IMG/VR virus record: IMGVR_UViG_3300045988_043739
Span: 1 to 44,247 of that record
DNA: 44,247 nucleotides
From: a virus
Reading direction: 5' to 3' (one strand)
Shown here: piece after piece, positions 18,476-34,441 of the stretch
Layout of the letters: each line of letters starts with the position of its first letter
Numbering within the stretch: position 1 is the stretch's first letter
Notes under the pieces: model-generated
Database searches by the model: none
What the model was told of the DNA's origin: nothing
The model's input: the letters and a program-made list of their open reading frames with translations, nothing else
Position numbers and translations under genes: made by a program

Positions 18476-18631
18476 ATGACGGAAGCGAGAAGGAAAACGC
18501 TGAAAGTCAAAGACATGCAGCGCCGGGTTATCGGCAAGGCGATGAACGCCGCGAAGTACGGCTTGCAGATGCGCGAGAGCGCAAAGACGATCAGCATGAG
18601 AACGGAGGACAAGCATGGTAGTAAAAATTAA
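18476..18631 (+). CDS. Small basic protein (51 aa)
   Basis: Internal ATG of ORF 18413-18631, preceded by GGGGAGAAAACAGGAT. K/R-rich. Confidence 0.4.
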   Translation: MTEARRKTLKVKDMQRRVIGKAMNAAKYGLQMRESAKTISMRTEDKHGSKN

Positions 18632-19237: not shown

Positions 19238-19448
19238 TACTATCACCGGATGCCCCGAGCGGGCATTAGAGCCGACGGAGAGGGCAGATCAGGAGCGGCT
19301 TAACCGGTTGCAGGATATGCGCGAGGCGGAAACAGCTATCGGGCTGTATCTGGAGGATTACAAACACCTATTCAGCATCGAGATTAAGAACTTCTTGCTT
19401 GATTTACGGATTGCTGTGCAGGAATTTGAACAGGAGGACGAACCATGA
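19230..19448 (+). CDS. Hypothetical protein
   Basis: ORF 19194-19448. ATG 19230 has GGAGG 9 nt upstream. ATGA overlap with the next gene. Confidence 0.55.
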   Translation: MRDTITGCPERALEPTERADQERLNRLQDMREAETAIGLYLEDYKHLFSIEIKNFLLDLRIAVQEFEQEDEP

Positions 19449-19933
19449 ATTTATACGAATTGACGCAGGAATTTGCGACTGCAATGCAGGCTATCACGGT
19501 AGACCCGGAGACCGGCGAAGTCAGCGGCTTTGAGGCTGTAGACGGTCTGGACGCGGCGTTTGAGGACAAGGCCGAAGCGTATGCCGTCACCATCAAGAAC
19601 CTTGACGCAGAGATTAAGGCGCTCAAGAACGAGCGGGACAATCTCAAGGCGCGAGAGGATGCGACCAAGAAGCGCATGGAGTACATGAAGCAGCACCTTG
19701 CGGACAGTATGCTTGCTGTAGGCAAAGACAAGATCAGCACGGCCAAGGCGGCGCTGTCGTTCCGCAAGAGTATGCAGGTGAACATTACGAGCGACGTAAT
19801 GGTGCCGGATGATCTGTGCAAGGTGATTATCGACCGCAAGCCGGACAAGACGGCAATCGGCAAGCTGCTGAAATCCGGTGAGGCCGTACCGGGCGCGGAG
19901 CTGGTAGAAAACATGAATTTGCAGGTGAAGTGA
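19445..19933 (+). CDS. Siphovirus Gp157-family protein
   Basis: MNLYELTQEF...FEDKAEAYAVTIKNLDAEIKALKNERDNLKAR, with overall length and layout typical of Sipho_Gp157. Precedes ERF. Confidence 0.8.
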   Translation: MNLYELTQEFATAMQAITVDPETGEVSGFEAVDGLDAAFEDKAEAYAVTIKNLDAEIKALKNERDNLKAREDATKKRMEYMKQHLADSMLAVGKDKISTAKAALSFRKSMQVNITSDVMVPDDLCKVIIDRKPDKTAIGKLLKSGEAVPGAELVENMNLQVK

Positions 19934-22161: not shown

Positions 22162-22881
22162 ATGAACGGGCACATAAAACTGCACCGTGCGCTTACAGAG
22201 TGGGGATGGTATACAGACCTCCCCACCTGCAAGCTATGGCTTCACATCCTGTTGAGAGCCAATTACAAGGCTTGTGAGTGGCAGGGGATAGAAATACCGC
22301 GCGGTGCGTTTGCAACAAGTTACGCGGCACTCTCGGCGGAAAGTGGACTGTCTGTACAGCAGGTACGGACAGCACTCGGTAAACTGAAAAAGACCGGCGA
22401 AATCACGGTGGAAACCAATCGGCACTACACCGTGATTACCGTCAGCAAGTATGACGAGTACCAAAGTTGCGAGCGGGACGAAGTGCCGGAACCGGCAAAA
22501 TGTCCGCCGAAGCCTAAAGCGCCAAAGCCAGAAAAGCCAAAAGAGCCGGACTGGACGGAACGGTTTAACGAACCGGTACGCTCAGCGGTCGAGGATTGGC
22601 TCAGATACAAAGCTGAACGCAGGGAAGGGTACAAGCCAACAGGATTAAAAAGCCTGCTCAGTGCCATTGAGAACCGCGTAAAGCAGCACGGAGAACAGGC
22701 AGTAGCCGAGGTTATCCGGCTGAGTATGTCGCAAGGTTGGAAGGGTATCATTTGGGACAGAATCGGAGACAAGCCGAAGAAAACCAAAACGGATGCGCCG
22801 ATGTTTAACGGTGCGCCCGCCGCCAGTGACTGGGAAAATGAGTGGGCGGCACGAGTGAAAGCCAGCAGAGGTGAAAGGTGA
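22162..22881 (+). CDS. Replication initiator / replisome-organiser-like protein
   Basis: N-terminal KLHRALTEWGWYTD...LWLHILLRANY...GLSVQQVRTALGKLKKTGEI (winged-helix type common in phage replication proteins). Pro/Lys linker. Helical C-terminal domain. Confidence 0.5.
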   Translation: MNGHIKLHRALTEWGWYTDLPTCKLWLHILLRANYKACEWQGIEIPRGAFATSYAALSAESGLSVQQVRTALGKLKKTGEITVETNRHYTVITVSKYDEYQSCERDEVPEPAKCPPKPKAPKPEKPKEPDWTERFNEPVRSAVEDWLRYKAERREGYKPTGLKSLLSAIENRVKQHGEQAVAEVIRLSMSQGWKGIIWDRIGDKPKKTKTDAPMFNGAPAASDWENEWAARVKASRGER

Positions 22882-23258
22882 AATTTGTAATCAAAGGCCC
22901 GCTGCCGGGACTGAATGAGCTGATCGAGGCGGAACGGCGCAATCGGTACTTAGGCGCACAGCTCAAGAAGAAGTGCGAAACCGTTGTGATGCACGCGGCA
23001 CGGCAACTTGGCGGTGCGGAGTTTCAGGAGCCGGTGTATATGATATATCACTGGTACGAGAAGGACCGACGGCGGGACAAGGACAATATCTGCGCGTTTG
23101 GCAGAAAGGTTATTCAGGACGCGCTGGTCAAGGCGCGGTATCTGAGCAACGACGGATGGAAGAATATCCGAGGGTTTGAAGATCACTTTGAGGTGGATTC
23201 CAAACACCCGCGGGTTGAGGTTGAGATTTTGGGAGCGGATGAGGATGAAACAGGTTAA
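22878..23258 (+). CDS. rusA: RusA-family Holliday junction resolvase
   Basis: GTG start. DRRRDKDNICAFGRKVIQDALVKARYLSNDGW matches the RusA catalytic Asp region. Confidence 0.8.
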   Translation: MKFVIKGPLPGLNELIEAERRNRYLGAQLKKKCETVVMHAARQLGGAEFQEPVYMIYHWYEKDRRRDKDNICAFGRKVIQDALVKARYLSNDGWKNIRGFEDHFEVDSKHPRVEVEILGADEDETG

Positions 23259-24063
23259 ATGCGAGTTGTTCTGCGATAATTTCCAGAACTACAAGCGTTA
23301 CGGAATTCCGAAAGCACAGCTTGTGATTGCGGATATTCCGTATAACATCGGTGCGGACGCATACGGAAGCAATCCAATGTGGTATGTAGGCGGCGACAAC
23401 AAGAACGGAGAAAGTGCAAAGGCGAAAAGCAGCTTTTTCCGCACGGACGGCTATTTCAAGATTGCCGAATATATGCACTTCTGCAACCGGCTTTTGAAGA
23501 AAGAACCAAAGGAACGCAACGCTGCACCGGCGATGATCGTATTCTGCGCGTTCGACCAGATGCAGACGGTGATGGAGTATGGCAGACGGTACGGGTTCAA
23601 GAATAGCTATCCACTGTTTTTCACGAAGCCGTATTCCGCACAGGTGCTTAAAGCGAATATGCGGATTGTAGGCGCAACTGAGTTTGCGGTTGTGCTGTAC
23701 CGGGACAAGCTGCCGAAGTTCAACAACGGCAGGCGGTATGACGAGAACGGCAAGGTCGTTCGCGGGAGCGGCAAGATGGTGTTTGACCATATCGACTGGG
23801 AACGCGACGGCAGAGAAGTACCAAAGCTGCACCCGACACAGAAGCCGGTGAAGCTGCTGAAAAAGCTGATTGAGATTTTCACAGACCCGGGCGATGTGGT
23901 GATTGACCCATGCGCCGGAAGCGGTTCGACACTCAGAGCGTCGCGGGAGCTGGGGCGCGATAGTTACGGATTTGAAATCTGCAAGGAGTTTTACCGCGAT
24001 GCGGTGGAAAAGATGCTGAAAGAGCCGGAAACGGTACAGATTGGATTGGAAGGTGTGGTGTGA
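23239..24063 (+). CDS. DNA methyltransferase (N6-adenine/N4-cytosine, ParB-less beta class)
   Basis: ADIPYN (motif IV-like), HPTQKP, VIDPCAGSGST (motif I). The start (23239 or 23245) is uncertain. Confidence 0.85.
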   Translation: MRMKQVKCELFCDNFQNYKRYGIPKAQLVIADIPYNIGADAYGSNPMWYVGGDNKNGESAKAKSSFFRTDGYFKIAEYMHFCNRLLKKEPKERNAAPAMIVFCAFDQMQTVMEYGRRYGFKNSYPLFFTKPYSAQVLKANMRIVGATEFAVVLYRDKLPKFNNGRRYDENGKVVRGSGKMVFDHIDWERDGREVPKLHPTQKPVKLLKKLIEIFTDPGDVVIDPCAGSGSTLRASRELGRDSYGFEICKEFYRDAVEKMLKEPETVQIGLEGVV

Positions 24064-24160
24064 ATGGTTGAGGAAGCAGTTTTGAACGCTGCACCGGAGA
24101 ATGAGGTTCAGACGATGAAAGTTTTAATTGTCTGTGAGGAATCATGGGAGGAACAGAATA

Positions 24161-24382
24161 ATGACATTAGTTGAATTACAGGACGTATTAGGCCGCCGCA
24201 TTGAGATTGCGGAAAATCCGGATATGGATATTGCACAGCGCAAGGAAGAAACCGAGATTTCGCAGACCATTGCGAGCCTTGCAAAACAGATGATCAACAA
24301 CGCAGACATTGTACTGCGTGCTGAGAAGCTGATGGGCGAGGGCAAACTGGTAAACAGCAACATCGAAAAGATGATTCGATGA
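24161..24382 (+). CDS. Hypothetical protein
   Basis: GGGAGG RBS. 73 aa. Confidence 0.55.
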   Translation: MTLVELQDVLGRRIEIAENPDMDIAQRKEETEISQTIASLAKQMINNADIVLRAEKLMGEGKLVNSNIEKMIR

Positions 24383-24939
24383 GCCGTCATCATAGATACA
24401 CACAGGAGCAGGAGCAGTTTCTGCGGGAGCAGATCGGCGTATGCGACAGCTATGCCGACCTGACCCAGCGGTTCAATGCGCGGTTCGGCACGGCGCTCCG
24501 GCAGCACAGCGTGCAGGATAAGTGTACCAAGCAGATGAAAATCCACCGCGGCAGGAACAGCGGACAGTTTGCAAAGCACGGTCAGCCGCGTGCACTGCCG
24601 ATAGGAACGGTGCGCCGAAGCCAGACGGGAACGTACATCAAGGTGCGCGAAGTGCCGGTGGACGCGCATATTTCTGGCTACGCAAGACCGTACTGGATAC
24701 CGTTGCAGGAAAAGGTCTGGACAGATGCGCACGGTAGTGTTCCGGCAGGGCATATGATCTGCTTTCTGGACGGGAACACGCAGAATTTTGCACCGGATAA
24801 TCTGTATCCGATCACACGCGCCGCAAGCGTGCGTATGGCGCAGAATAAATGGTGGTCGAGTGACCCGCGCATTACCAAGACCGGGATTATGTATTGCAAT
24901 TTGATGATTGCGTTGAGGAGGAAACGCGAATGCGACTAA
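24379..24939 (+). CDS. HNH homing-endonuclease-like protein (HNH_3 type)
   Basis: GHMICFLDGNTQNFAPDNLYPITRA. Confidence 0.65.
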   Translation: MSRHHRYTQEQEQFLREQIGVCDSYADLTQRFNARFGTALRQHSVQDKCTKQMKIHRGRNSGQFAKHGQPRALPIGTVRRSQTGTYIKVREVPVDAHISGYARPYWIPLQEKVWTDAHGSVPAGHMICFLDGNTQNFAPDNLYPITRAASVRMAQNKWWSSDPRITKTGIMYCNLMIALRRKRECD

Positions 24940-25151
24940 AGTGTTGGTACGGCATCCATGAGCCGAGCGGAGAAAGCATTATTCCGGCGGTTGATGAGTG
25001 CTGGCTGAAAAAGTGCAAGTATTGCAATCGGTATATTCTGCACGGCGTAGGCTGCTCGGTTGATGTTTCCAAAAGGAAAGCAATGAAGCTGAGAGACGAG
25101 ATTTGTCGAGAGTTAGGAGAATTGAGATTAGGGAGGGTTAGGAATGGTTGA
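24930..25151 (+). CDS. Hypothetical Cys-containing protein
   Basis: GGAGGA RBS before ATG 24930. 73 aa. Confidence 0.5.
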   Translation: MRLKCWYGIHEPSGESIIPAVDECWLKKCKYCNRYILHGVGCSVDVSKRKAMKLRDEICRELGELRLGRVRNG

Positions 25152-25629
25152 GTATATAAAACGGAAAGAAGCAATTCTTACCGTTAAAGGCTACGCAAAG
25201 CATGCTATCGACAAGGGTAGGAAATGCCTTGATGCAGAAGACGATACCATCCATATGTGCGATGAGATTGACCGCCTGCTCGCTGTCGATGTTATTCCAA
25301 GACCGCGCTGGATTCCGATAGCGGAACACCTACCGGAGCCAGAAACCGAAGTTATGATTGTCTGCAATGACAATGGTCGTAGATTTATCGCAACGGCAAT
25401 CCACGAAAACGGAAAGCAGCTCTCGGAAGAAAGCTGCTGGGTTTGGACTGATATTTGGGAGTACGGTCGCTATGACGAAGAACATGACGATTATTTCGTC
25501 CCGGAGGGCTGGTGGGAGAGCCGCTGCTTCACGCCGGACGATGTTTACAACTGCATGGTAGACTGCGAAGTAACTCACTGGATGCCTATGCCGGAGTTGC
25601 CAGAGGAGAAAACCAATGGCAATAAGTAA
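25144..25629 (+). CDS. DUF551-like phage protein
   Basis: RWIPIAEHLPEPETEVMIV ... THWMPMPELP resembles DUF551. Confidence 0.5.
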   Translation: MVEYIKRKEAILTVKGYAKHAIDKGRKCLDAEDDTIHMCDEIDRLLAVDVIPRPRWIPIAEHLPEPETEVMIVCNDNGRRFIATAIHENGKQLSEESCWVWTDIWEYGRYDEEHDDYFVPEGWWESRCFTPDDVYNCMVDCEVTHWMPMPELPEEKTNGNK

Positions 25630-25999
25630 GAAAACCCGCGAAGAAGTATACCGCAAATACGACGGACACTGTGCTTATTGCGGCAGAGAGATTGCATACA
25701 AAGATATGCAAGTAGATCATTTTCTCCCACTGAGGGCATGGGGAATTGAAGATGCGGGGAAAGATGATATTTCGAATCTCATGCCGTCCTGTCGAATGTG
25801 CAATCATTACAAGCGAGCCAATACGCTGGAAACATTCCGGCGCTACATCGCGGAAATTCCGAGAAAGCTGCGCGAAAATTACATCTATAAGGTTGGCGTA
25901 GTTTACGGGAATGTGATCGAGAATGAAAAGCCGATTGAGTTTTACTTTGAGAAGCAGGAAAGTGCAACTCATTTGGGAGAGGGGTGTGAAAATGGCTGA
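25616..25999 (+). CDS. HNH endonuclease
   Basis: CAYCGREI...VDHFLPL...NLMPSCRMCNHYK. Confidence 0.8.
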   Translation: MAISKKTREEVYRKYDGHCAYCGREIAYKDMQVDHFLPLRAWGIEDAGKDDISNLMPSCRMCNHYKRANTLETFRRYIAEIPRKLRENYIYKVGVVYGNVIENEKPIEFYFEKQESATHLGEGCENG

Positions 26000-26282
26000 A
26001 TATATTGAGCGTGAAGCGGCGGAAGATGCAGTCGGAGAAGCGCACCTAAAGGGGCTTAATCCGCTTTGGGAGTTGCGTGACGTTCCTGCCGCCGACGTTG
26101 CGCCGGTGGTGCATGGCGAGTGGGTGCGTCCGCACTGGAAAGGCAGTGATTATTGTTGTGACTGTTCAGAGTGTGACGGGGAAGCAATGCACAGAGAATA
26201 TCAATGGAACAAAAAGGGTATTTACCCTATCTGTCCTAACTGCGGCGCGAAGATGGACGGAGGTAATGGCAATGAAGTTTAA
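25992..26282 (+). CDS. Zinc-ribbon-containing hypothetical protein
   Basis: CCDCSECDG...CPNCG. Internal ATG 25992 of ORF 25923-26282. Confidence 0.5.
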   Translation: MAEYIEREAAEDAVGEAHLKGLNPLWELRDVPAADVAPVVHGEWVRPHWKGSDYCCDCSECDGEAMHREYQWNKKGIYPICPNCGAKMDGGNGNEV

Positions 26283-26826
26283 GAAAGACGGGAAAGTGTA
26301 CGACGATATCGACGCACTGATGCATGAAACCTGTTTTGCAGGAACTCACTACCACTGTGGAAGCTGCGAGATTAAAGACAAGGCACTCACAGAGCAGGAT
26401 AGTTGCTATGCCTATGCAATTTATCATCAGAGAGAAATAGCGCAATACTTAGGCTATGAGGTGATCGAGGACGACACGCCCACCATTGCCGAGGCAGTCG
26501 AGAAGTACGGCGAAGGCGCAAAGCACAGACTGACCCGTGCGGACATCCTGCACGCGGCGGAGAAGTGCGTATGCGGACAGCGCGAGACGGACTACGGCAC
26601 GCCGGAGGACAATTTTGAGACGATCGCGGAACTTTGGGAAACATACCTCAGGCGCGCGTGCGTGGATGAGGCGGGCGGTGTGTATATCGACGCGAACGAC
26701 GTTGCCATGATGATGGCGCTGCTCAAGATTGCACGCATTGCAGCAGGCGGCGGAAAGGCTGACAGTTGGATTGATCTTGCAGGCTATGCGGCTTGCGGGG
26801 CGGAGTGCGAGGGGGTAACGGAATGA
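26272..26826 (+). CDS. Phage protein with DUF6378-like C-terminal domain (tentative)
   Basis: RETDYGTPEDNFETIAELWETYL...DVAMMMALLKIARIA...DSWIDLAGYAACG. GGAGG lies 8 nt upstream of ATG 26272. Confidence 0.5.
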   Translation: MKFKKDGKVYDDIDALMHETCFAGTHYHCGSCEIKDKALTEQDSCYAYAIYHQREIAQYLGYEVIEDDTPTIAEAVEKYGEGAKHRLTRADILHAAEKCVCGQRETDYGTPEDNFETIAELWETYLRRACVDEAGGVYIDANDVAMMMALLKIARIAAGGGKADSWIDLAGYAACGAECEGVTE

Positions 26827-27092
26827 AGTACAGAAAGAAACCTGTTGTGGTTGAGGCCGTCCGGTGGACAGGCGAGAACGTGGGAGAAATCAACGGCTTT
26901 TGCAACCCTGTAAAGGATTATACTGTAAGAAATACTATCTTATGGTCGAAGGATAAGACATTGCTCATCAAAACGCTTGAAGGGAATATGCTTGCGAACG
27001 TTGGCGACTACATCATCAAGGGCGTAAACGGCGAATACTACCCCTGCAAGCCGGATGTGTTCGCAAAAACGTATGAGGCGGTGGAAGAATGA
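26823..27092 (+). CDS. Conserved small phage protein
   Basis: MKYRKKPVVVEAVRW...GDYIIKGVNGEYYPCKPDVFAKTYE is a pattern recurrent in phage genomes (family name not recalled). Confidence 0.6.
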   Translation: MKYRKKPVVVEAVRWTGENVGEINGFCNPVKDYTVRNTILWSKDKTLLIKTLEGNMLANVGDYIIKGVNGEYYPCKPDVFAKTYEAVEE

Positions 27093-27349
27093 CCGTCGCC
27101 GAAATCGCCGCCCAGATGGATACAGCACAAGCGACGGTACTTGTTTTGAGCGCGTTAGCGGTTGTTTGTGGACTTGCAGTGCTTATAGCCAGATTTATAG
27201 GCTCTGATAACATTAGCGCTGCACTGGTTATGCTCTCTGTGCTTTTAGTGGTTTTCGGTGCGATCGCCTTTAGAAACGTATGCAAAACCGCGCCGGGAAC
27301 CACGGCGAACCAGTACATTGTTGAACATTATGGAGGAATAGAAAAATGA
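27089..27349 (+). CDS. Two-TM membrane protein
   Basis: Hydrophobic segments VLVLSALAVVCGLAVLIA and LVMLSVLLVVFGAIAF. Confidence 0.6.
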   Translation: MTVAEIAAQMDTAQATVLVLSALAVVCGLAVLIARFIGSDNISAALVMLSVLLVVFGAIAFRNVCKTAPGTTANQYIVEHYGGIEK

Positions 27350-27720
27350 CACCAACTGTTGTATTTGATTTTGACGGCGTTATTCACAGTTATACTTCCG
27401 GGTGGAAGGGGAAAACGGTTATTCCCGACCCACCGGTGCAGGGAATTCGTGAGGCGATTAACGACATTCGGAAATTGTACCGAGTAGTTGTTGTATCGAC
27501 CCGCTGCGATACACCAGACGGCATTATGGCCGTAAAGGAATATCTGGCCAAGCACGACATTGTTGTTGACGATGTGATGAAGGAAAAACCGCCTGCGATT
27601 GTGTATATTGACGACCGAGCTATTTGTTTTGACGGGAATCCGCACGGATTACTCGATAAAATCACGGCATTTGAACCATGGACGGCAAAAGCGATGAGGA
27701 GAATGAAGAATGACGATTGA
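27346..27720 (+). CDS. HAD-superfamily phosphatase-like protein
   Basis: VVFDFDGVIHSY (DxDG motif I), VVVSTR, YIDDR. Confidence 0.6.
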   Translation: MTPTVVFDFDGVIHSYTSGWKGKTVIPDPPVQGIREAINDIRKLYRVVVVSTRCDTPDGIMAVKEYLAKHDIVVDDVMKEKPPAIVYIDDRAICFDGNPHGLLDKITAFEPWTAKAMRRMKNDD

Positions 27721-27898
27721 TGAAGCTATTAAGTACGCGGATATGCTGTCGTGCAATGTGAATGCGTTTGAAGTGAGCAAGCAATTCGGCGCGATGTGCG
27801 CTGATGCACTGCGGCTGGCAAAGAAAATGAGCGAGGATGCCGGAATTAGCGCAACACCTGCGCAGGACACATGGCAGGAACGAAGAAAGCGCAAATGA
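27710..27898 (+). CDS. Hypothetical protein
   Basis: 62 aa. ATGA-type overlap with the upstream gene. Confidence 0.5.
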   Translation: MTIDEAIKYADMLSCNVNAFEVSKQFGAMCADALRLAKKMSEDAGISATPAQDTWQERRKRK

Positions 27899-28151
27899 GC
27901 GGTTCCCGCAGTTCCACTCGGAGCACGAGGGATGGGCAATCATTACGGAGGAAGCCGAGGAACTGCGGGAAGAATGCGACAGTATCGAAATGTCAATGAA
28001 GCAGCTCTGGCACCGTATCCGTGACGGAATCCCGACGGCGCAACATGTGGCTTTCGTTGAGCAGGACGCCGAAGCTGCGGCTTGCGAGGCAATTCAGGTG
28101 GCGGCGATGGCGAGAAAGTACCTTGATATGTTGGAGCGGATGAACGCGTGA
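27837..28151 (+). CDS. MazG-like NTP pyrophosphohydrolase-type small protein (tentative)
   Basis: FHSEHEGWAIITEEAEELREE resembles the EExxE helix of MazG-like proteins. The only in-frame start (ATG 27837) overlaps the previous ORF by 62 nt. Confidence 0.4.
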   Translation: MPELAQHLRRTHGRNEESANERFPQFHSEHEGWAIITEEAEELREECDSIEMSMKQLWHRIRDGIPTAQHVAFVEQDAEAAACEAIQVAAMARKYLDMLERMNA

Positions 28152-28342
28152 AGCAGTACAGCGCGGAGATGCGGCAGTATCTGGACGAGATGCGGCGGTA
28201 TGAAAATTGGAGGTACGGAAATGACCGATTACGGCGGATATGGGACGAAACAAACTACCTCGCAGACAGTATCGCCCGAAAATACGTTAAAATCGACGAT
28301 CTGATTGAAGAACTGCGGGAGAATGGAATAGCATTAGCATGA
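28148..28342 (+). CDS. Hypothetical protein
   Basis: GTG start overlapping the upstream stop (GTGA). 64 aa. Confidence 0.5.
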   Translation: MKQYSAEMRQYLDEMRRYENWRYGNDRLRRIWDETNYLADSIARKYVKIDDLIEELRENGIALA

Positions 28343-28554
28343 AAAAGAAAAGCGAATGCGCTGGGTGCGCATACTGGCGAGTACTGGGTACGAGCCAAGG
28401 GTATAAGCTATGGGCGTGGCATTATTTGATCGACACGGGGAAATCGCGCGGATGTGAACCGGGTGTGGGTTGCGTCCGCAAGGCGGCTAAGATCAGCCGA
28501 CGCAGGCGATATACACAGCACGGCATGGAGGAGGTAGTGGCACACGACGACTAA
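28339..28554 (+). CDS. Small Cys-containing basic protein
   Basis: ATGA overlap. CAGCAYW...GCEPGVGC. Confidence 0.5.
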   Translation: MKKKSECAGCAYWRVLGTSQGYKLWAWHYLIDTGKSRGCEPGVGCVRKAAKISRRRRYTQHGMEEVVAHDD

Positions 28555-28600: not shown

Positions 28601-28957
28601 TTGGAGGAAGCAAGAGTAAGGGCGTGGACGCGGGCGACAAGCGCAACGGCAACCATCAAGGACACGCCGGGCGGCGGCGGTGACGTGACCGCAAACAAGG
28701 CGGATGCATATCTTGCCCTGTCCGAGAAGATACAGAGAGAGCAGGAACGGCTTGCGCTGATTAAAGCCGAGATCATCAGCACAACAGCTAAGGTGCAGGA
28801 TGCGGCGCTGCGGGCGCTGCTGATCGAACATTACGTGAACGGCAGAACGTGGAGAGAGACTGCCGAAAAGATTCACTATAACGAGGACCATGTGCGCGGA
28901 CGGATGCACGTTCGCGCCCTGCGGGAAGTGGAGAAGTTATTAACAGATTGTGCATGA
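28601..28957 (+). CDS. DUF1492-like / sigma region-4-like late transcription regulator
   Basis: DTPGGGG...ERLALIKAEIISTTAKVQD...LRALLIEHYVNGRTWRETAEKIHYNEDHVRGRMHVRALREVEKLL. The frame is open from 28538 with a plausible N-terminal extension but no ATG/GTG. TTG 28601 is the first conventional start. Confidence 0.65.
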   Translation: MEEARVRAWTRATSATATIKDTPGGGGDVTANKADAYLALSEKIQREQERLALIKAEIISTTAKVQDAALRALLIEHYVNGRTWRETAEKIHYNEDHVRGRMHVRALREVEKLLTDCA

Positions 28958-28996
28958 ATCTGTGGAAAACTTACCACACTATACCACAAAAACTGG

Positions 28997-29005
28997 TGTT
29001 ATAAT
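28997..29005 (+). promoter_or_regulatory. Extended -10 promoter TGtTATAAT
   Basis: Perfect TGnTATAAT 40 nt after the regulator stop, heading the ORF-free region. Confidence 0.55.
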
Positions 29006-29252
29006 AGTATTGTGATAAAAGCTCGTAAGAGCAGAATCACGGAGTTTCGTTCCTCCATTTCTACCTAAAGTCCCGTTTTAAGCGGTGGGGAAATCCTGCC
29101 GCTGACCTGCTCCAAAGTCTGCATGAGGGCGGCGGAGCGCCTTTCGCGGAACGAAGGCATTGATTATCCTTTCTATTCTTTCGGCGTGTCTTTTGCGCGG
29201 CACGCCGATATGCTCCAAAGCCTGCATGAGGGTGACGGAGTAATAACATTTA

Positions 29253-29261
29253 TGCTACAAT
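29253..29261 (+). promoter_or_regulatory. Second extended -10 promoter TGcTACAAT inside the ORF-free region
   Basis: TG at 29253-29254, TACAAT at 29256-29261. Confidence 0.4.
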
Positions 29262-30040
29262 GAGAATGGAATGCGGAGCCTGCGGGCAACAGGCACCGCA
29301 AACATGCCCGGATGGCTGCGTGAGGTCGGACGGGTAACGTATGGATTAACCAAGGGCAACGTGGCGGACTTTTGCAAGTCTTGCATGGTGGACAACGTGC
29401 AAGTCAATCTGTTCCCGAAGCTGCATGAGGCGGAGGGAGCACAACGCCTCCAACGAGGACGATAATATTCTGACAGCTCGGAAAGACGAGCCTGTTTCCG
29501 AACGCCTGTGAAGCTGCTGCAACGGCTTTGCAGAGTTCAGCGGGTGCTTGCAGGCACGCCGCAACCGGGGTCGCTCCCCGCTGTAACCTAACAAGGGAAT
29601 CAGCCGGATTACGCACCGATAGAGACGCGTGACACGACGGACAGAGACGCCGAACAGCCTATATCGAGAGGGCGAGTGCTACTGGATAAGCACTCACACG
29701 GACTTAGTGAGCCGAGAGCAAAACACCAGTTTGCTAACAAAGTTACAAAGCCGATACGGCGCTTTCGGGTGGCTAAGTACACGCCACGAAAGAGCACCAG
29801 TCTGTTTATCTCTTGCAATAAACAACCTAATCATCAGGACGGAAACACAAGTAAACTTGCGAAAGTGAGGTTATTACCTCTCTGGATTTCATACAACCGT
29901 TCTGGACAGCTGAGAGATCACCGGTAAAAGCCCGGCGTTCAGACGCGACGATAGCGTTCATACCTCCCTGTGGAGGTATACCGGTTTGCATAGTTGCTGG
30001 AAGCGGGTGCGAGCCCTGCAAAACCGAAACAGTCGTATAA

Positions 30041-30086
30041 TGACAAACCCCGCTCACCTTATGGCTTTGGTGAGCGGGGTTTGTCA
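30041..30086. terminator. 18-bp perfect hairpin between convergent units (bidirectional terminator candidate)
   Basis: TGACAAACCCCGCTCACC-(10 nt)-GGTGAGCGGGGTTTGTCA. The U-tracts on both sides are only modest. Confidence 0.6.
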
Positions 30087-30092
30087 TGCTAT

Positions 30093-30782
30093 TTAGAAAA
30101 TACTCCGATAGTCGCAAAAGTTCAATGCTTCGGCGATCTTCTCGCGGTAATTTTCGCCTGCTTCGTAGGCGGTGATCTTGCCGGTTTCGATCTGTTGCAG
30201 GGTTTGAACTGGAATGCCGGTTGCGTCTGCAAGCTGCTGCTGGGTCAAACCTGCGGCTTCGCGGATATCTGCAACGGAGATTTTGCCTTTTGGCCACTTG
30301 TCCCCGTGTGCCTTATCCATGACCTCGCCGACCTTGTAAATGTGGGCACGTTCCATGCGTCGGCCGCCGCCCTCGTTCGGGATGGAGAAGAAGATACCGG
30401 AATCAATCGCGGACTGAAAAGCGGATTCGAGGTTTTCGCCGTGCTCGCGCAGGCTGGCCGGTGTGCCCACAGTGACGGGCACCATGCAAATATTACCGTC
30501 GTGCGCGTCATAGTCACCGTAGAATGCCGGTGTTGTGTTGCGGTAGCCACTGCAATTACAGTGACCGTAATGCACACCGTCCGGCACCTCGATAAGCACA
30601 CGACGCAGGGCGATATAGCTACCGTATGTGTCCCAACCGAGCTTGCCAATCTGGCGATCGGATTCCACGCTATCCTCTGTAATGATAAAAGCGTCATACT
30701 CCTTGACGGGATAGTTCGGTGTAGATTTTGCCTCGTTGAGGCGTTCGGCTGGCTGACAAAACAGGGTAAGAGTTGCTAACAT
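30093..30782 (-). CDS. Unknown 165-aa domain fused to C-terminal XRE-type HTH (229 aa)
   Basis: ORF 30093-30911. ATG 30782 has GGAGGA 7 nt upstream. C-terminal ISVADIREAAGLTQQQLADATGIPVQTLQQIETGK. The N-terminal domain contains HYGHCNCSGY. Confidence 0.7.
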   Translation of the reverse strand: MLATLTLFCQPAERLNEAKSTPNYPVKEYDAFIITEDSVESDRQIGKLGWDTYGSYIALRRVLIEVPDGVHYGHCNCSGYRNTTPAFYGDYDAHDGNICMVPVTVGTPASLREHGENLESAFQSAIDSGIFFSIPNEGGGRRMERAHIYKVGEVMDKAHGDKWPKGKISVADIREAAGLTQQQLADATGIPVQTLQQIETGKITAYEAGENYREKIAEALNFCDYRSIF

Positions 30783-30934
30783 GGTGAGTTCCTCCTTCGG
30801 TTTGTTGGGTATAAGTGTATCATAATGTAAGTCCGATATGCAGGACTTTAGTTTGCGCTGTTGTGCTAATTGTACCCCGATGTGCGGGGTAGTGTCAATA
30901 TGTTCCGCCACAGGTGCGTGAGCCGGGCGGGAGA

Positions 30935-31102
30935 TTAAACAATTTCAAAACTGACACCCTCAATGAATAAGATAGTACCGTATCCGGGAAGAAATGCACA
31001 ACGGCGTCCAACCCATTCCGGGTGATTACCTTGGTAATCCTGATAGGTGGATTTGTAGTCGTTGCCGATGCGGTCGTATTCTGCTTTTGTGATGCGTACC
31101 AT
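30935..31102 (-). CDS. Hypothetical 55-aa protein (below ORF-track cutoff)
   Basis: AAAGGA RBS. Translation MVRITKAEYDRIGNDYKSTYQDYQGNHPEWVGRRCAFLPGYGTILFIEGVSFEIV. It fills the gap between the two flanking minus-strand genes. Confidence 0.5.
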   Translation of the reverse strand: MVRITKAEYDRIGNDYKSTYQDYQGNHPEWVGRRCAFLPGYGTILFIEGVSFEIV

Positions 31103-31146
31103 GGTAAATCCTTTCTGCCCTCGTTACCTCCGGGGCGGGTGGTTGG

Positions 31147-31380
31147 TTAGTTCCAGCGGTTAAAGTCGAATAGGTCGCTATCAGGAAATGCGGCGTTGAG
31201 AGTATCGCCTTTGTTGGTGACGGCCTCGTAACGATCGAGACAGGAAAGCCAGTTTTCGGCAGCTTGCTGCTCGGTGATGCGGTAGATACGATTAAGGGTG
31301 ATATAACCATCGCCTGCGGATGCGTACTTGTTGCCGATGACTGCGTTCTGCTTGGTGAGGATTGGGTAATTGGTTTTCAT
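31147..31380 (-). CDS. Hypothetical 77-aa protein
   Basis: ORF 31147-31395. ATG 31380 has GGAGGT 8 nt upstream. Confidence 0.6.
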   Translation of the reverse strand: MKTNYPILTKQNAVIGNKYASAGDGYITLNRIYRITEQQAAENWLSCLDRYEAVTNKGDTLNAAFPDSDLFDFNRWN

Positions 31381-31443
31381 GGTGTGTACCTCCAAATTAA
31401 AATTTATGGCTGCGGGCTTTAAGGGTGAACCCGCGAGAACCTT

Positions 31444-31908
31444 TTAAGCGCCGATCGTGCCGAACTGCTGATACAAGTAAATGTACTTAGCAAGTTCTTT
31501 CGCTCCGCCAATGGCAGTGCAGCGGCTTTTGCTGTCGTGCAGACGGTAGTCATAGTACAGGAGACCGGGGCGAACCGTTACGATATCCTCGGCACTTCTG
31601 AGCACCTTTTCCGCCTCGTCGATGTACTCGGCGGATACATCATCAAAGAGGCCGTACTCGTAATCGACGAACATATAAAAGTTGCCGCCTGCGAGGATTT
31701 CACCGGTGCGCTCGTCGCGGTCGATCTCGTCCCAGTGCATGAGCAGCTTTTCAACGTCGCTGCGCTTAACGGTCGGGTCCTTGATCGTAACATGTGCGCT
31801 GGTGCTGTATCCGCAATCCTTAACGGATACCTTGAAGGACTTGGTGTTGTAGCCTGCGGCTTTCAGTTCGCGCTTGATTGCTGCGTTGGTTTCTCGGTTA
31901 GTTAACAT
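31444..31908 (-). CDS. LPD29-like domain protein (tentative), 154 aa
   Basis: TNAAIKRELKAAGYNTKSFKVSVKDCGYSTSAHVTIKDPTVKRSDVEKLL is reminiscent of a domain seen in polyvalent proteins of conjugative elements and phages (from memory). Confidence 0.65.
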   Translation of the reverse strand: MLTNRETNAAIKRELKAAGYNTKSFKVSVKDCGYSTSAHVTIKDPTVKRSDVEKLLMHWDEIDRDERTGEILAGGNFYMFVDYEYGLFDDVSAEYIDEAEKVLRSAEDIVTVRPGLLYYDYRLHDSKSRCTAIGGAKELAKYIYLYQQFGTIGA

Positions 31909-31956
31909 ATTGATTACTTCCTTTCGGTGTTTGGTGTTTTCCTTTGCTGTGATTAC

Positions 31957-31985
31957 ATTGTACTATGAGTTAACTCATAAGTCAA
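31957..31985 (-). promoter_or_regulatory. Leftward promoter TTGACT-17-TACAAT with a palindromic operator filling the spacer
   Basis: Minus strand: TTGACT (31980-31985), a 17-nt spacer holding the 16-bp palindrome TATGAGTTAACTCATA plus 1 nt, TACAAT (31957-31962). Confidence 0.65.
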
Positions 31986-32045
31986 CAGGGAATGATACAC
32001 AAAAGTTAACTCATAAATTTAGTGATATTTGTGAGTACACTCATA
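31964..32045. promoter_or_regulatory. Three related operator sites (G)AGT(T/A)(A/C)ACTCATAA
   Basis: TATGAGTTAACTCATA at 31964-31979 (perfect palindrome), AGTTAACTCATA at 32004-32015, TGAGTACACTCATA at 32032-32045. Confidence 0.6.
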
Positions 32046-32054
32046 AGCGATATG

Positions 32055-32063
32055 TGTTATACT
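32055..32063 (+). promoter_or_regulatory. Rightward extended -10 promoter TGtTATACT
   Basis: TG at 32055-32056, TATACT at 32058-32063. The third operator overlaps its -35 position. Confidence 0.45.
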
Positions 32064-32096
32064 GTTTGTATCTATATAAGATATGGAGGGGAACAC

Positions 32097-32285
32097 ATGG
32101 CAGGAGATTACAAGGGCACGGACGCGCAGAAAAAAGCCGTCAAAGAATACCAGAAGACAAGAGACGCTATTATGCTGAGACCCAGCAAGGCAGACGGTAC
32201 GCAGATCAGGCAGGCCGCGGCCGATGCGGGTAAAAGCGTACAGGCGTATATCTTGCAGGCAGTGCGTGAGTATATGAACAAGTGA
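32097..32285 (+). CDS. Ribbon-helix-helix (CopG/Arc-like) protein, 62 aa
   Basis: ORF 32022-32285. GGAGGGG RBS before ATG 32097. AIMLRPSKADGTQIRQAAADAGKSVQAYILQAVREYM fits a beta-strand plus two helices. Confidence 0.55.
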   Translation: MAGDYKGTDAQKKAVKEYQKTRDAIMLRPSKADGTQIRQAAADAGKSVQAYILQAVREYMNK

Positions 32286-32307
32286 CAACATATTGTAGGC
32301 AGACAAA

Positions 32308-32338
32308 AGCCGCTCCAAGTAACCGGGGCGGCTTTTTT
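32308..32338 (+). terminator. Intrinsic terminator upstream of terS
   Basis: AGCCGCTCC-(8 nt)-GGGGCGGCT followed by TTTTTT. Confidence 0.7.
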
Positions 32339-32367
32339 GTGTCTATATATAAGTAAGGGGTGAGAAT

Positions 32368-32748
32368 ATGAACAAGCTGACCGCAAAGCAGCGGGCATGG
32401 ATTGATTACTATAAGCAGGGCAAGACAGCTACAGAGGCGGCACGGCTTGCCGGTTACAAGGGAAATAATCACCACACGATAGGCGCGCAAAACTTAGCAA
32501 AACTAAGCAAATACATTTCAGATCGGGACGAGCTGCTAGATCGTGACCGTGTGGCGGATATGGCGGAGATTAACGCGTTTTGGAGCGACACCATGAGAGA
32601 TGATACGGCAGACATTAAAGACCGCCTGAAAGCGTCTGAGCTGCGCGCACGGAGTATCGGCGCATTTATTGAGCGCCGGGAAATCGTAGGAGCGCAGACG
32701 ATCACGGTTAAGCTGCTGGATGATGACGAAATGAATGATACAGAGTAA
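32368..32748 (+). CDS. terS: Terminase small subunit (P27-family-like)
   Basis: LTAKQRAWIDYYKQGKTATEAARLAGYKGNNHHTIGAQNL is the typical N-terminal HTH of this family. Precedes terL. Confidence 0.85.
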   Translation: MNKLTAKQRAWIDYYKQGKTATEAARLAGYKGNNHHTIGAQNLAKLSKYISDRDELLDRDRVADMAEINAFWSDTMRDDTADIKDRLKASELRARSIGAFIERREIVGAQTITVKLLDDDEMNDTE

Positions 32749-32789: not shown

Positions 32790-32944
32790 ACCCTGATATG
32801 CAGGATTAGACTTTGCGACTTGCAAAATTAAGGGTTTTCGTGGGGCTGAGTGCCGGATTTCTCGGGGTAAATACCAGAGAGCAAGACGGACGGTGTTGCT
32901 TATTATGCAAAATACGCATTTTGTACAATTAGGAGGTGCGGCGG

Positions 32945-34441
32945 GTGCAAGTTAATATCCCCAAGCGGGCATTCAACGCGGCGTATCTGCCGCTGCTGGA
33001 CGATGACGAGCACAGATATATTGTGCTGTATGGCGGCGCTGGCTCTGGTAAGTCTGTATTTGCAGCGCAACGGCTGGTTGTCCGCATGATGAGCAAGCCG
33101 CTGTGCAATGTGCTTGTGGTCCGCAAGGTTGGCGACACAAACCGAACGAGTACGTTTGCACTGCTGCAGCAGGTCATTAACGGCTGGGGCTTGCATAGCC
33201 TGTTTGATGTTACTGACCTTAAGATTGTATGCAGTCTGACCGGCAACGCCTGTATTTTTAAGGGTTTGGATGACCCGGAAAAAATCAAATCTGTTACATT
33301 TCCCAAGGGCGAGCTGACCGACATATGGATTGAGGAGGCAAGCGAGATTGCGGAAGCCGACTTTAACCAGCTCGATATACGTCTGCGAGGCAAGCGGATA
33401 CACGGACAGATTACGCTTTCGTTTAACCCGATCAACGTTCTGCACTGGCTCAAAAAGCGGTTCTTTGATCGCAAGGATGAGCGGGCGGTGACGCTGAAAA
33501 CCACTTACAAGGACAACGCATGGCTTGATGAGGACTACAAGCGCACGCTTGAGGGGTACAAGGACAGTGATCCGTACTATTACCAGGTGTATTGTCTGGG
33601 GCAGTGGGGCGTTATCGGCAAGACGATCTTCGACGCGGCCAAGGTCAACGGGCGACTTGCAGAACTGCGGGAGCCGGTTAAGCGTGGATACTTTGCATAC
33701 TCGACACGGTTTGACGCGGTATCTAATCAGGTGCGGATTGACGATCGAACTATTAAGTGGGTGGACGCTGACGACGGCTATATCTCGATCTATCAGGACA
33801 GGCGGGACGGCGTGCCCTATGTAATCGGCGGGGATACGTCCGGCGAGGGTTCAGACTGGTTTGTGGGGCAGGTGCTCGACAACACCAACGGGCGGCAGGT
33901 GTGCACACTGCGGCATCAGTTCGATGAGGATGTATACGCTGCGCAGATGTATTGTCTGGGTATCTACTATAACAAGGCGCTGATTGCGATTGAGGCCAAT
34001 TACAGCAGTTACCCGATCAAGGAGCTGCAGCGGCTTCGGTATCCGCGGCAGTACGTCCGGCAGACTGAGGACAACTACACCCACAGACCCCGCGACAGCT
34101 ACGGCTTCAAAACCACAAGCGTTACAAGGCCGGTTATTATTGCCGGACTGGTTGAGGTAGTGCGCGAGAGCGTGGAGCTGCTGAACGATGCGGACACGCT
34201 GGGCGAAATGCTGACCTTTGTTCGCAACGAGAAGGGCAGAGCAGAGGCAGAACAGGGAGCGCACGACGACTGCGTTATGGCGCTGGCTATCGCCTACTAT
34301 GCACGCACACAGCAGAGCTACACCGAGGACAAGCCGCGAGGCAAGCGGGCGAAGTGGACGGATGATATGTACGAGGATTACTACAACGCCAACAAGAGCG
34401 GCAAGGAGTACCTATTATCTAAATGGGGCAATCCGTTTTGA
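32945..34441 (+). CDS. terL: Terminase large subunit (PBSX/Terminase_3-like)
   Basis: Walker A is YGGAGSGKS. The C-terminal nuclease region contains GAHDDCVMALAIA. GTG 32945 is preferred (AGGAGGTG 6 nt upstream) over the track start 32936. Confidence 0.9.
   Translation: MQVNIPKRAFNAAYLPLLDDDEHRYIVLYGGAGSGKSVFAAQRLVVRMMSKPLCNVLVVRKVGDTNRTSTFALLQQVINGWGLHSLFDVTDLKIVCSLTGNACIFKGLDDPEKIKSVTFPKGELTDIWIEEASEIAEADFNQLDIRLRGKRIHGQITLSFNPINVLHWLKKRFFDRKDERAVTLKTTYKDNAWLDEDYKRTLEGYKDSDPYYYQVYCLGQWGVIGKTIFDAAKVNGRLAELREPVKRGYFAYSTRFDAVSNQVRIDDRTIKWVDADDGYISIYQDRRDGVPYVIGGDTSGEGSDWFVGQVLDNTNGRQVCTLRHQFDEDVYAAQMYCLGIYYNKALIAIEANYSSYPIKELQRLRYPRQYVRQTEDNYTHRPRDSYGFKTTSVTRPVIIAGLVEVVRESVELLNDADTLGEMLTFVRNEKGRAEAEQGAHDDCVMALAIAYYARTQQSYTEDKPRGKRAKWTDDMYEDYYNANKSGKEYLLSKWGNPF

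Follow-up and report, generated by a model that had tools for sequence, protein, structure and literature searches.

The immI region of phage P22 comprises Mnt and Arc, repressors of the ribbon-helix-helix (RHH) type, and the promoter Pant; there, the RHH repressor gene is divergent from the promoter that it controls. Acr-Aca fusion proteins are represented by the AcrIIA1, AcrIF24 and AcrIF25 types. Aca14 (WP_005725436.1), an Aca of the RHH type, represses both its own and the neighbouring anti-defence operon (PMC13551039, NAR 2026). The same study mentions Acr-Aca fusions and the occurrence of LPD29 genes in aca4 operons (PMC13551039). The LPD domains of polyvalent proteins, which also occur solo, have been proposed to be early-acting counter-defence modules (Iyer et al. 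2017, PMC5512222). The locus described below shares features with each of these systems and differs from each.

The 44,247-nt stretch of DNA analysed here (the window) represents a siphovirus-like, temperate phage whose hosts are gut Clostridia. The phage lineage is very common in human-gut Clostridia, and Butyricicoccus sp. AM28-25 carries members of the same phage cluster. An accessory slot, bordered by the late-regulator/leader region on one side and by the packaging genes on the other, is presently filled by four minus-strand ORFs (Table 1). The first-pass annotation had described these as ORFs of 154, 77, 55 and 229 aa, each with its own ribosome binding site; the ORFs and their lengths were verified, and a Shine-Dalgarno-like motif precedes every one. 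All four are real genes, as judged from the homologue clusters of ORF1 and ORF4 and from the exact ORF2 and ORF3 sequences indexed in many blocks of an assembly collection. The description of the group as the sole leftward block within about 27 kb is approximately right, the qualification being a minus-strand ORF at 18359-18793 that may be a real gene. An antisense ORF at 19384-19914 was discarded as spurious, the real gene at that place being a Gam-like gene on the plus strand. The cassette DNA matched none of 50,697 GenBank phages at the DNA level, and no Rfam match was obtained for the region.

Table 1. Positions of the features referred to in the text, in nucleotides of the window.
Feature	Position	Strand	Remarks
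Integrase gene	13853-15031		
CI-like HTH gene	16429-16821		
Terminator-like hairpin	30040..30087	bidirectional	arms 30040-30058 and 30069-30087, 10-nt loop
ORF4	30093..30782	-	229 aa from ATG behind GAAGGAGG; 165-aa domain plus XRE-type HTH
ORF4 N-domain	30288-30782		residues 1-165, beta-rich
Promoter P2	30869..30898	-	TTGACA-18-TACAAT, 11/12 consensus positions; directly upstream of ORF4
P2 spacer palindrome	30873-30891		TACCCCG-CACAT-CGGGGTA; single copy in window
Linker	30899..30933	-	CTCCCGCCCGGCTCACGCACCYGYGGCGGAACATAT; between variable payload and P2
ORF3	30935..31102	-	55 aa; payload gene
ORF2	31147..31380	-	77 aa from ATG, GGAGG before start; payload gene
ORF1	31444..31908	-	154 aa; first payload gene; alpha/beta fold
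5' leader and RBS	31909..31956	-	A-rich, conserved (GTAATCACAGCAAAGGAAAACACCAAACACCGAAAGGAAGTAATCAAT)
Promoter P1	31957..31985	-	TTGACT-17-TACAAT, 10/12 consensus positions
O1	31964-31979		perfect palindrome inside P1 spacer
O2	32000-32015		second operator copy
O3	32030-32045		covers -35 region of divergent RHH promoter
Extended -10 of RHH promoter	32055-32063		TGTTATACT
RHH-like gene	32094..32285	+	63 aa, divergent; candidate repressor acting on P1 and on its own promoter
Terminator of RHH gene	32305-32336		

Comparison of about 30 related phage loci revealed some 20 different gene orders in the slot; the genes belong to more than 20 families of small proteins. The ORF1-3 sets differ among relatives whose terL is 94-99% identical and whose late regulator is 86-99% identical. 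Small proteins without known domains are thus shuffled, deleted or replaced in otherwise near-identical phages, between edges that are conserved: the divergent promoter region with the 5' leader, the linker before P2 and the 19-bp terminator hairpin. A 38-aa chimera, in which the N-terminus of ORF1 is joined to the C-terminal end of a 181-aa gene product, bears the mark of an in-frame deletion. The first-pass annotation had proposed a self-contained accessory cassette and had named two outcomes that would speak against it. One was strict conservation of the locus across relatives, where swapping was found. The other was a confident match to ordinary phage functions; searches of Pfam, PHROGs, PADLOC and NCBIfam returned none to replication, morphogenesis, defence or toxin families. 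Judged by these comparisons, the slot is a hypervariable accessory cassette and not a set of core genes. Having its own promoter and terminator and being variably present among close relatives, it qualifies as a moron or hypervariable accessory island. The early region of several relatives harbours the Sequestin sponge family, to which no match was detected among the scanned early-region ORFs of the window.

Transcription of the cassette would start at P1, a near-consensus promoter whose spacer had already been recognized as perfectly palindromic and which contains the 16-bp sequence TATGAGTTAACTCATA. This palindrome is present as three predicted operator copies (O1-O3) and is absent from the rest of the window. 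In all relatives, the P1 architecture is kept and the operator is swapped, each operator type being present in two or three copies per locus, one of them inside the P1 spacer. Five variants of the divergently encoded 63-aa protein pair with five operator sequences, the operator type changing with the protein variant in 5/5 cases. An identical ORF4 HTH sequence (recognition helix IPVQTLQQIE), on the other hand, occurs with four P1 operator types; the HTH of the window type was found with operators TGAGTTAACTCA, ATCATTACTCAATGAT, ACTTGCGCAAAT and GTCAGTCTACTGAC. Since the operator type follows the variant of the divergent protein, and since identical ORF4 HTHs are found behind different P1 operators, the repressor of P1 is likely to be the divergent protein rather than ORF4. 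Linkage rather than binding may account for part of these regulator-operator correspondences and of those at P2, as the operators are located within 150 bp of the RHH gene and P2 lies directly against ORF4. The 63-aa protein matches, in every case below cut-off, phrog_13890 (4.4e-6; a PHROG of unknown function), the Arc-like phrog_582 (0.053), a NikA-like Pfam family (1.4e-3), HicB (0.011) and TacA1. These matches suggest that it is ribbon-helix-helix-like, an assignment that leans on sub-threshold Pfam matches and one PHROG. The A-rich leader downstream of P1 is kept ahead of either type of first gene, the ORF1 type (MLTNRE...) or one starting with MTAT..., and may act as a recombination linker.

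A second promoter, P2, matches the consensus more closely than P1 does (11/12 versus 10/12). Its palindromes fall into three types (A, B and C), the window having type A. Type A was found in 5/5 loci without a downstream 149-aa gene, type B in 18/18 loci with a downstream 149-aa protein, whose C-terminus is RHH-like, and type C in 2/2 loci where the ORF4 homologue is 36% identical and has a different HTH. Types A and B both precede ORF4 proteins of identical HTH sequence; hence ORF4 cannot bind the two of them specifically. Aca-like autoregulation by ORF4 is possible at P2 only. The linker on the P2 side is conserved whichever gene precedes it, as seen in the alignment upstream of ORF4 and in locus L039. 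No terminator was detected in the ORF3-ORF4 interval. At the end of the slot there is indeed a hairpin, as first reported, although with arms of 19 nt rather than the 18 bp (30041-30086) originally given; its RNA energy is -38.1 kcal/mol (z = -9.8). The hairpin recurs at the slot end in those related loci that were inspected; there it shows up in translation as the conserved peptide MTNPAHQSHKVSGV.

The initial description of ORF4 as a 165-aa domain of unknown nature fused to an XRE-type HTH was borne out. Residues 171-203 match Pfam HTH_3 (PF01381) with 38.4 bits against a cut-off of 23. In the AF2 model of the protein (pLDDT 93.6, pTM 0.88), the HTH part (residues ~166-229) retrieved 434 Cro and C.AhdI in Foldseek (2cro, 1y7y and 2b5a; probability 1.0, target TM 0.66-0.74). 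With HTH_3 above cut-off and a five-helix Cro-like fold, the C-terminus is of the XRE/Cro-C1 HTH type. Residues 1-165 belong to no Pfam family and have no PDB match by sequence-profile search or by Foldseek, where solely the HTH part was matched. A metal-binding role for the HYGHCNCSGY motif of this domain was considered and rejected, the Cys/His motif being replaced or deleted in homologues. ORF4 has 45 homologue clusters; no match was found in the 50,697 GenBank phages, nor by a profile scan of the GTDB representative genomes. Stand-alone versions of the N-domain (148-184 aa) are encoded in other phages, among the small accessory or early genes. ORF4 is the last gene before the terminator in the window; further genes follow it in most other cassettes, and it is missing from the cassettes of L024, L026, L027, L029, L042 and L046. 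ORF4 and the 149-aa gene, together with a gene of 93 aa, also form a module that resides in an ICE-like region encoding TraG and sortase. In another element (L001), a 71%-identical ORF4 homologue is directly followed by the gene of a 329-aa protein with an AcrVA2-like Pfam domain, whose C-terminal region matches PDB entry 7ci1 (AcrVA2) with an E value of 5.4e-4. The 329-aa protein of another locus (L043), examined as a second AcrVA2 homologue, turned out to be a zinc-ribbon protein.

Among the remaining products, ORF1 has 26 homologue clusters (36-97% identity) sharing the conserved motif IDRDERTGEILAGGN. Its AF2 model (pLDDT 89.6) gave no PDB match in Foldseek, nor did its sequence in a profile search. 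Against BFVD, the best Foldseek match was an uncharacterised Siphoviridae protein (E 4.4e-8, TM 0.70), and two phage proteins annotated as "Large polyvalent protein associated domain-containing" were also retrieved (E 2.4e-4, TM 0.50, and E 1.5e-3, TM 0.40). The resemblance to an LPD29-type domain claimed in the first-pass annotation therefore receives weak backing from the structural matches. ORF1 itself falls short of the Pfam gathering threshold of LPD29 (PF18847), with no match at E up to 1, and only 2 of 23 relatives match the family weakly (best E 0.083). The predicted fold may be distantly like that of LPD-annotated phage proteins. The sole match of ORF1 in the 50,697 GenBank phages is a distant homologue in Streptococcus phage phi5218, located in the integrase-lysis moron region and adjoining an Abi-like gene. 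In the GTDB representative genomes, the ORF1 profile found only three loci, in Clostridia MAGs. In the assembly collection, 1313 indexed blocks contain the exact ORF2 sequence, with varying neighbours, and 1397 contain the exact ORF3 sequence; a 73%-identical copy of ORF3 occupies another cassette position in L004. Family matches were absent for ORF2 in Pfam, PHROGs, PADLOC, NCBIfam and PDB sequence-profile searches, and for ORF3 in Pfam, PHROGs and PDB sequence-profile searches. ORF1-3 and about 20 pan-cassette proteins yielded nothing from PADLOC, NCBIfam, Pfam or PHROGs.

Taken as a whole, the data seem to us best explained by a shuffled accessory slot with two repressor-controlled units and conflict-type payloads, an account that we hold with moderate confidence. 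The two units would be nested. In the outer one, P1 and the divergent RHH promoter would have the three operators in common; the 63-aa protein would most likely bind O1-O3 and thereby shut off both P1 and its own gene, following the logic of Aca14 or of Mnt/Arc. P1 would transcribe ORF1-ORF2-ORF3, with probable read-through into ORF4, given that no terminator was detected ahead of the latter. In the inner unit, ORF4 would be under P2, and its HTH would most likely bind the P2 palindrome where, as in the window, the unit has no other DNA-binding gene; ORF4 would then be an effector-plus-autorepressor fusion. Payloads would be made from strong sigma-70-type promoters, either on DNA entry or in the lysogen, after which the repressors would throttle their synthesis. 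The step of which we are least certain is the function of the payload proteins: by binding proteins of the host or of rivals, they would take part in conflicts, be it with host defences or with rival mobile elements. The case for an anti-defence function is circumstantial. It draws on the possibly LPD-like fold of ORF1, the AcrVA2 homologue beside an ORF4 homologue, the ORF4 module in an ICE and the N-domain genes among accessory or early genes. A regulator is present in the cassette and another beside it (HTH_3 in ORF4 and the RHH-like gene), as in acr-aca operons; the cassette proteins of the window have no detectable homology to a characterised anti-defence protein in Pfam, PHROGs, PADLOC, NCBIfam or PDB profiles. 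A bolder version, possible but doubtful in our estimate, would make the slot an anti-defence or inter-element-conflict island with more than 20 inhibitor families under exchangeable RHH-operator control. ORF4 would represent a new class (beta-rich effector plus autoregulatory HTH), and the cassette might be silenced late by convergent antiterminated transcription from the neighbouring leader RNA, which has 4-5 conserved hairpins.

The AcrVA2 link comes from one lineage and is a case of guilt by association, and the targets of AcrVA2 homologues are mostly unknown (bioRxiv 10.1101/2022.11.29.518452). Outward-facing, self-terminated genes in a temperate phage fit lysogenic-conversion morons equally well. 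In that event, the payloads would be conversion or superinfection-exclusion genes, expressed from the prophage and protecting the lysogen against phages or mobile elements, with the RHH protein and ORF4 as housekeeping regulators. The integrase and CI-like HTH genes of the phage agree with this idea, as do the cassette's own sigma-70-like promoters and terminator, its orientation against the lytic genes, the moron-region setting of the phi5218 homologue and the action of AcrVA2 relatives such as FinQ against rival elements (bioRxiv 10.1101/2022.11.29.518452). We nonetheless regard it as unlikely: apart from generic HTH matches, PADLOC models match no window or pan-cassette protein; the family searches brought up none of the membrane, nuclease or NTPase families that characterise exclusion or abortive-infection genes; and proteins so small and so quickly replaced look more like inhibitors than like defence systems. 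Quite improbable is a toxin-antitoxin or addiction module stabilising prophage or ICE, in which ORF4 and the 149-aa RHH-tailed protein of relatives would be antitoxin-like autoregulators of small toxins. The promoters do look tightly autoregulated from their sequence, and the module also resides on an ICE and on Rep-encoding elements. However, the matches to antitoxin models (HipB/Y4mF at 4.7e-7, Xre-like-HTH, and a HicB-like PHROG for the 149-aa protein) are weak, all scoring under the family cut-offs, and are accounted for by generic HTH. Toxin families, by which a type II system would be recognized, are absent from ORF1-3 and the pan-cassette genes in Pfam, PHROGs, PADLOC and NCBIfam; moreover, the partners of ORF4 vary, and in the window it stands alone behind P2.

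The wiring itself admits other interpretations. The first-pass annotation had envisaged a single four-gene operon of the acr/aca type, with the terminal ORF4 acting as autorepressor at the P1 palindrome. The position of ORF4 before the terminator in the window, its genuine XRE HTH and the likely read-through from P1 all accord with such an arrangement. This part of the annotation was not supported, and we consider the model highly improbable: it is the RHH variant, not ORF4, with which the P1 operator type changes, ORF4 has a promoter of its own, and in many cassettes it is internal or absent. The divergent RHH gene, the operators over both promoters and the temperate nature of the phage reproduce the anatomy of mnt/Pant, and the Arc-like PHROG match points the same way; the RHH protein could then be a Mnt/Arc-type repressor of an antirepressor operon feeding the lysis-lysogeny decision. 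We give this extremely little credence, as no payload protein has an Ant, KilA-C or Bro domain, and a regulatory circuit would not tolerate the swapping of unrelated output genes among near-identical phages.

To our knowledge, hardly any counter-defence genes are known from phages whose hosts are strictly anaerobic Firmicutes of the gut. Should the payloads be factors of counter-defence or inter-element conflict, the shuffled slot provides a ready catalogue of candidates with conserved boundaries, in a lineage that is widespread in human-gut assemblies (exact ORF2 and ORF3 each in about 1300-1400 indexed blocks). If they are ordinary prophage morons, the locus still offers a clean case of cassette exchange at conserved linkers. 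Together with the P2 operators in their three types, the exchangeable RHH-operator pairs would make up a natural set of orthogonal repressor-promoter pairs, by which the recently described logic of RHH-type Aca would extend to Clostridia.

Like Aca14 systems, the locus combines a small protein, here of putative RHH type, with inverted repeats that overlap two promoters on a mobile element, that of the protein's own gene and that of a neighbouring operon whose genes are small and for the most part lack annotation. The placement of the operators agrees with the Aca14 type (O1 within the P1 spacer, O3 over the -35 region of the promoter of the RHH-like gene), and the RHH fold is suggested by sub-threshold matches. 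Payloads are variable, as in Aca-regulated operons, where LPD29-type genes are reported (PMC13551039). Unlike in Aca14 systems, the RHH gene is divergent and monocistronic and does not close the operon, none of the payloads is a known Acr and the host is a gut Clostridium-type bacterium; the likeness described is one of layout. With the Acr-Aca fusions, ORF4 shares the joining of an HTH to a non-DNA-binding domain that also stands alone, behind a promoter with a spacer palindrome. It differs from them in that its N-domain resembles no known Acr and no solved structure, its binding of DNA and its inhibitor activity are putative, and the same HTH is found behind two types of P2 palindrome. ORF1, a phage protein that stands alone and whose predicted fold has matches among LPD-annotated phage proteins, may resemble the solo LPDs, but it stays under the Pfam LPD29 threshold. 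The parallel with P22 immI lies in a temperate phage with a divergent RHH-like gene and operators over both promoters, outside the main immunity region, yet the cassette contains no antirepressor homologue and its output genes are interchangeable cargo. Finally, in common with morons and hypervariable islands, the slot is an autonomous promoter-genes-terminator unit between conserved modules that is present, absent or replaced in close relatives. It departs from the usual moron in what seem to be two nested repressor-operator pairs, in conserved linkers that apparently serve as exchange points and in an unusually high combinatorial diversity per slot.

The locus between the late regulator gene and terS is best described, on sequence grounds, as a two-tier, repressor-controlled slot for accessory genes, of the anti-defence-island or moron kind, with an exchangeable ribbon-helix-helix (RHH)-operator pair at promoter P1 (upstream of ORF1) and an effector-HTH fusion behind promoter P2 (upstream of ORF4). 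The four minus-strand ORFs reported in the first-pass annotation are present with the lengths described, each preceded by a Shine-Dalgarno motif. ORF1 has 26 homologue clusters (identity down to 36%) and ORF4 has 45, while the exact ORF2 and ORF3 sequences occur in 1313 and 1397 blocks, respectively, of an assembly collection index. Judged from this recurrence, all four are real genes. P1 is indeed near-consensus (TTGACT-17-TACAAT), its spacer containing the perfect palindrome TATGAGTTAACTCATA, and the terminal hairpin is very stable (-38.1 kcal/mol, z -9.8), with arms of 19 nt rather than the 18 originally given.

Coordinates of features in the window and in related loci (L numbers)
Feature	Position	Strand	Remark
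Tail protein	6844-13623		2259 aa
Integrase	13853-15031	-	
CI-like HTH gene	16429-16821	-	
Mu Gam-like gene	19445-19933		early region
N6/N4 DNA methylase	23176-24063		early region
HNH endonucleases	24379-24939; 25616-25999		early region
Late regulator	28601-28957		
Leader stretch	28958-30039	+	1.1 kb
Four hairpin units	around 29119, 29222, 29316, 29421	+	loop motif CUGCRUGAGG
Terminal hairpin	30040-30087		
ORF4	30093-30782	-	229 aa
P2	30898..30869		
ORF3	30935-31102	-	55 aa
ORF2	31147-31380	-	77 aa
ORF1	31444-31908	-	154 aa
P1	31985..31957		
O1; O2; O3	31964-79; 32000-15; 32030-45		P1 palindrome copies
RHH protein gene	32094-32285	+	63 aa
terS	32368-32748		
terL	32936-34441		
38-aa chimeric ORF	L014 5385-5600; L015 5611-5826; L020 5617-5826; L025 3808-3924		relatives
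Sequestin-family genes	L006 9144-9665; L024 8140-8168; L026 7714-8085; L039 4317-4700; L046 6737-7234		relatives
ORF4 with downstream partners	L007 6001-7448; L011-L022, L025, L041, L044; L001 5605-5988		most relatives

Whether the cassette is core or variable was examined by comparing 13 loci from IMG/VR and more than 30 from ENA, Logan and NCBI. It proved variable: at 94-99% identity in terL and 86-99% in the late regulator, phages still differ in which of ORF1-3 they have, and some lack all three. Gene maps of the relatives reveal about 20 gene orders in this one slot, drawn from over 20 families of small proteins. Alongside the window's 154-77-55-229 (lengths in aa) are other orders with the 229-aa ORF4 (75-181-55-229; 154-77-229-149-93; 76-36-64-66-229-149-93), one without it (154-181-55), and further ones (76-65-103-181-55-77-145; 75-69-77-89-111-329). 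A 38-aa ORF, in which 14 codons from the start of ORF1 (MLTNRETNAAIKRE) run into the final 24 codons of the 181-aa cassette gene, is an in-frame deletion scar; it shows that recombination between short shared stretches removes genes from the cassette. Varying subsets, multiple orders and the scar together mean that the cassette is accessory and undergoes very fast exchange. Across all gene families found in the slot, searches of Pfam, PHROG entries with function and PADLOC gave almost no match. Between the RHH gene and terS, the 5' untranslated regions are similar (32067-32093 vs 32340-32366, 27 nt, 70%), as are the last codons of the former and the first codons of the latter (32266-32282 vs 32360-32376, 17 nt, 94%); these resemblances may be a trace of the insertion of an RHH-cassette block upstream of terS.

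The P1 palindrome occurs in three copies (O1-O3) between P1 and a divergent gene for a 63-aa protein. As read from the sequence, O1 fills the P1 spacer and O3 lies over the -35 region of the extended -10 promoter of the divergent gene (TGTTATACT, 32055-32063). The small protein matches phrog_13890 (4.4e-6), with sub-threshold matches to NikA-like, HicB, TacA1 and Arc-like proteins, and looks like an RHH protein. The architecture is constant across relatives, P1-region sequences being swapped as one unit. The small protein has five variants, which pair with five operator sequences (TGAGTTAACTCA, ACGTCAACGTGT, ATCATTACTCAATGAT, ACTTGCGCAAAT and GTCAGTCTACTGAC); each operator is present in 2-3 copies, one of them inside the P1 spacer, and is followed by a conserved 5' leader and RBS that stay the same irrespective of the first gene. 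The P1 palindrome had been assigned to an autorepressor, the terminal HTH protein ORF4. However, the operator type goes with the RHH variant, and an identical ORF4 HTH sequence is found behind four of the five operator types; this rules ORF4 out as the specific P1 repressor. Parsimony makes the RHH protein the candidate for this role, with the caveat that its gene and the operators are physically linked.

Nor do the four genes form a single operon, as had been proposed, since ORF4 has its own promoter immediately upstream (P2, TTGACA-18-TACAAT, 11/12 consensus). No terminator was detected between ORF3 and P2, so that P1 transcripts probably continue into ORF4. The P2 spacer holds a palindrome unique within the window, TACCCCG-CACAT-CGGGGTA (type A), which is found at 5/5 loci having ORF4 as the last gene. 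Type B, with three copies of ACTTTYRYRYAAAAGT, is found at 18/18 loci with genes for a 149-aa protein (RHH-like C-terminus, N-terminal KRYNTETAK motif) and a 93-aa protein downstream of ORF4; type C, with TGACATATATGTCA in the spacer, at 2/2 loci where the ORF4 homologue is 36% identical and has a different HTH. The palindromes imply that every P2 version is under operator control. Autoregulation is favoured in types A and C, where the unit encodes no DNA-binding protein other than ORF4; the main argument against its binding the type A site is that the same HTH sequence also occurs in type B loci. For that very reason, the RHH-tailed 149-aa protein is the better candidate for the type B binder. 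ORF4 and the genes for the 149-aa and 93-98-aa proteins travel together behind the triple-operator promoter in phages, Rep-encoding elements and an ICE-like region. Both of these partners have been lost from the window, where the P2 operator is of another type.

The XRE-type HTH at the end of ORF4 was borne out (Pfam HTH_3, 38.4 bits; Foldseek probability 1.0 to 434 Cro and C.AhdI). The ORF4 model is very confident (pLDDT 93.6, pTM 0.88), and its Foldseek structural relatives are confined to the HTH. The 165-aa N-domain represents a family without a Pfam model; an exhaustive search also found it stand-alone (148-184 aa) in other phages, encoded alongside small genes of the accessory or early kind. 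Its conserved positions are W50, P67, D95/G96 and the segment A121-A125-G129-P135-G139-R141, whereas the Cys/His motif HYGHCNCSGY singled out previously is not conserved in homologues. ORF1 also gives a confident AF2 model (pLDDT 89.6), with no structural match in the PDB. Its suggested kinship with LPD29 is weakly supported: it matches BFVD phage proteins, two of them annotated as large-polyvalent-protein-associated domain (E 2.4e-4 and 1.5e-3), but the Pfam LPD29 match is weak and limited to 2/23 relatives. LPD29 is without known function (PMC5512222) and has been noted in aca4 operons (PMC13551039). Family searches with ORF2 and ORF3 gave no match.

The window is a temperate phage with lysin, ERF, DNA methylase and HNH genes; its early region also carries a Mu Gam-like gene, and a long antisense ORF there (19384-19914) is spurious. 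The 2259-aa tail protein, whose sole recognised domain is a C-terminal M23 peptidase, is likely to be a fusion of the tape-measure or tail-lysin type rather than a polyvalent protein. No close cultured relative was found; the relatives come from human-gut metagenomes, and the annotated proteins of Butyricicoccus sp. AM28-25 include ORF1- and ORF3-cluster members. Beyond the late regulator, the early region of several relatives includes a gene for a Pfam Sequestin-family protein. Sequestin is a nucleotide-signal sponge family recognised as anti-defence, which gives the lineage at least one further variable spot with such a family; early-region ORFs scanned in the window (22162-28554) yielded no Sequestin match. 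The 1.1 kb from the late regulator to the cassette terminator are free of conserved ORFs and contain a promoter-like TGTTATAAT (28997-29005) and hairpin units about 100 nt apart, whose loop motif has 5 matches in the window vs 0.29 expected. Every related phage has 4-5 units; in 36 distinct units, 96% of cells pair, vs 79% in shuffled and 28-52% in slid controls, with compensatory changes at four pairs. G-U pairs assign the structure to the late-gene strand, and Rfam gave no match. The stretch resembles a structured leader RNA of the late genes, perhaps an array for antitermination or protein binding; read-through would take late transcription across the cassette in the antisense direction.

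As to function, a 71%-identical ORF4 homologue lies in an element with Rep and terminase genes (L001-L003), flanked by a 127-aa protein related to the RHH-tailed one and by a 329-aa protein with a Pfam AcrVA2-like match, the latter independently confirmed against AcrVA2 in PDB 7ci1 (E 5.4e-4, residues 189-312 to 186-314). AcrVA2 homologues, FinQ included, are widespread on mobile elements and active in conflicts (bioRxiv 10.1101/2022.11.29.518452). The module of ORF4, 149-aa and 93-98-aa proteins is also present in the ICE-like region of a 288-kb contig. Conflict or counter-defence cargo is what the AcrVA2 and ICE associations suggest, together with the LPD-like ORF1, how small the proteins are, their turnover and the absence of enzymatic domains in them; none of this is proof, and a moron role in protecting the prophage fits almost equally well. 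What stands of the proposed acr/aca-like cassette is its accessory, self-regulated and swappable nature; the model of one operon whose last protein autorepresses P1 does not. The RHH-operator layout at P1 matches Mnt/Arc of P22. It also matches the layout of a recently described RHH-type Aca, Aca14, by which its own operon and an adjacent one are repressed (PMC13551039).
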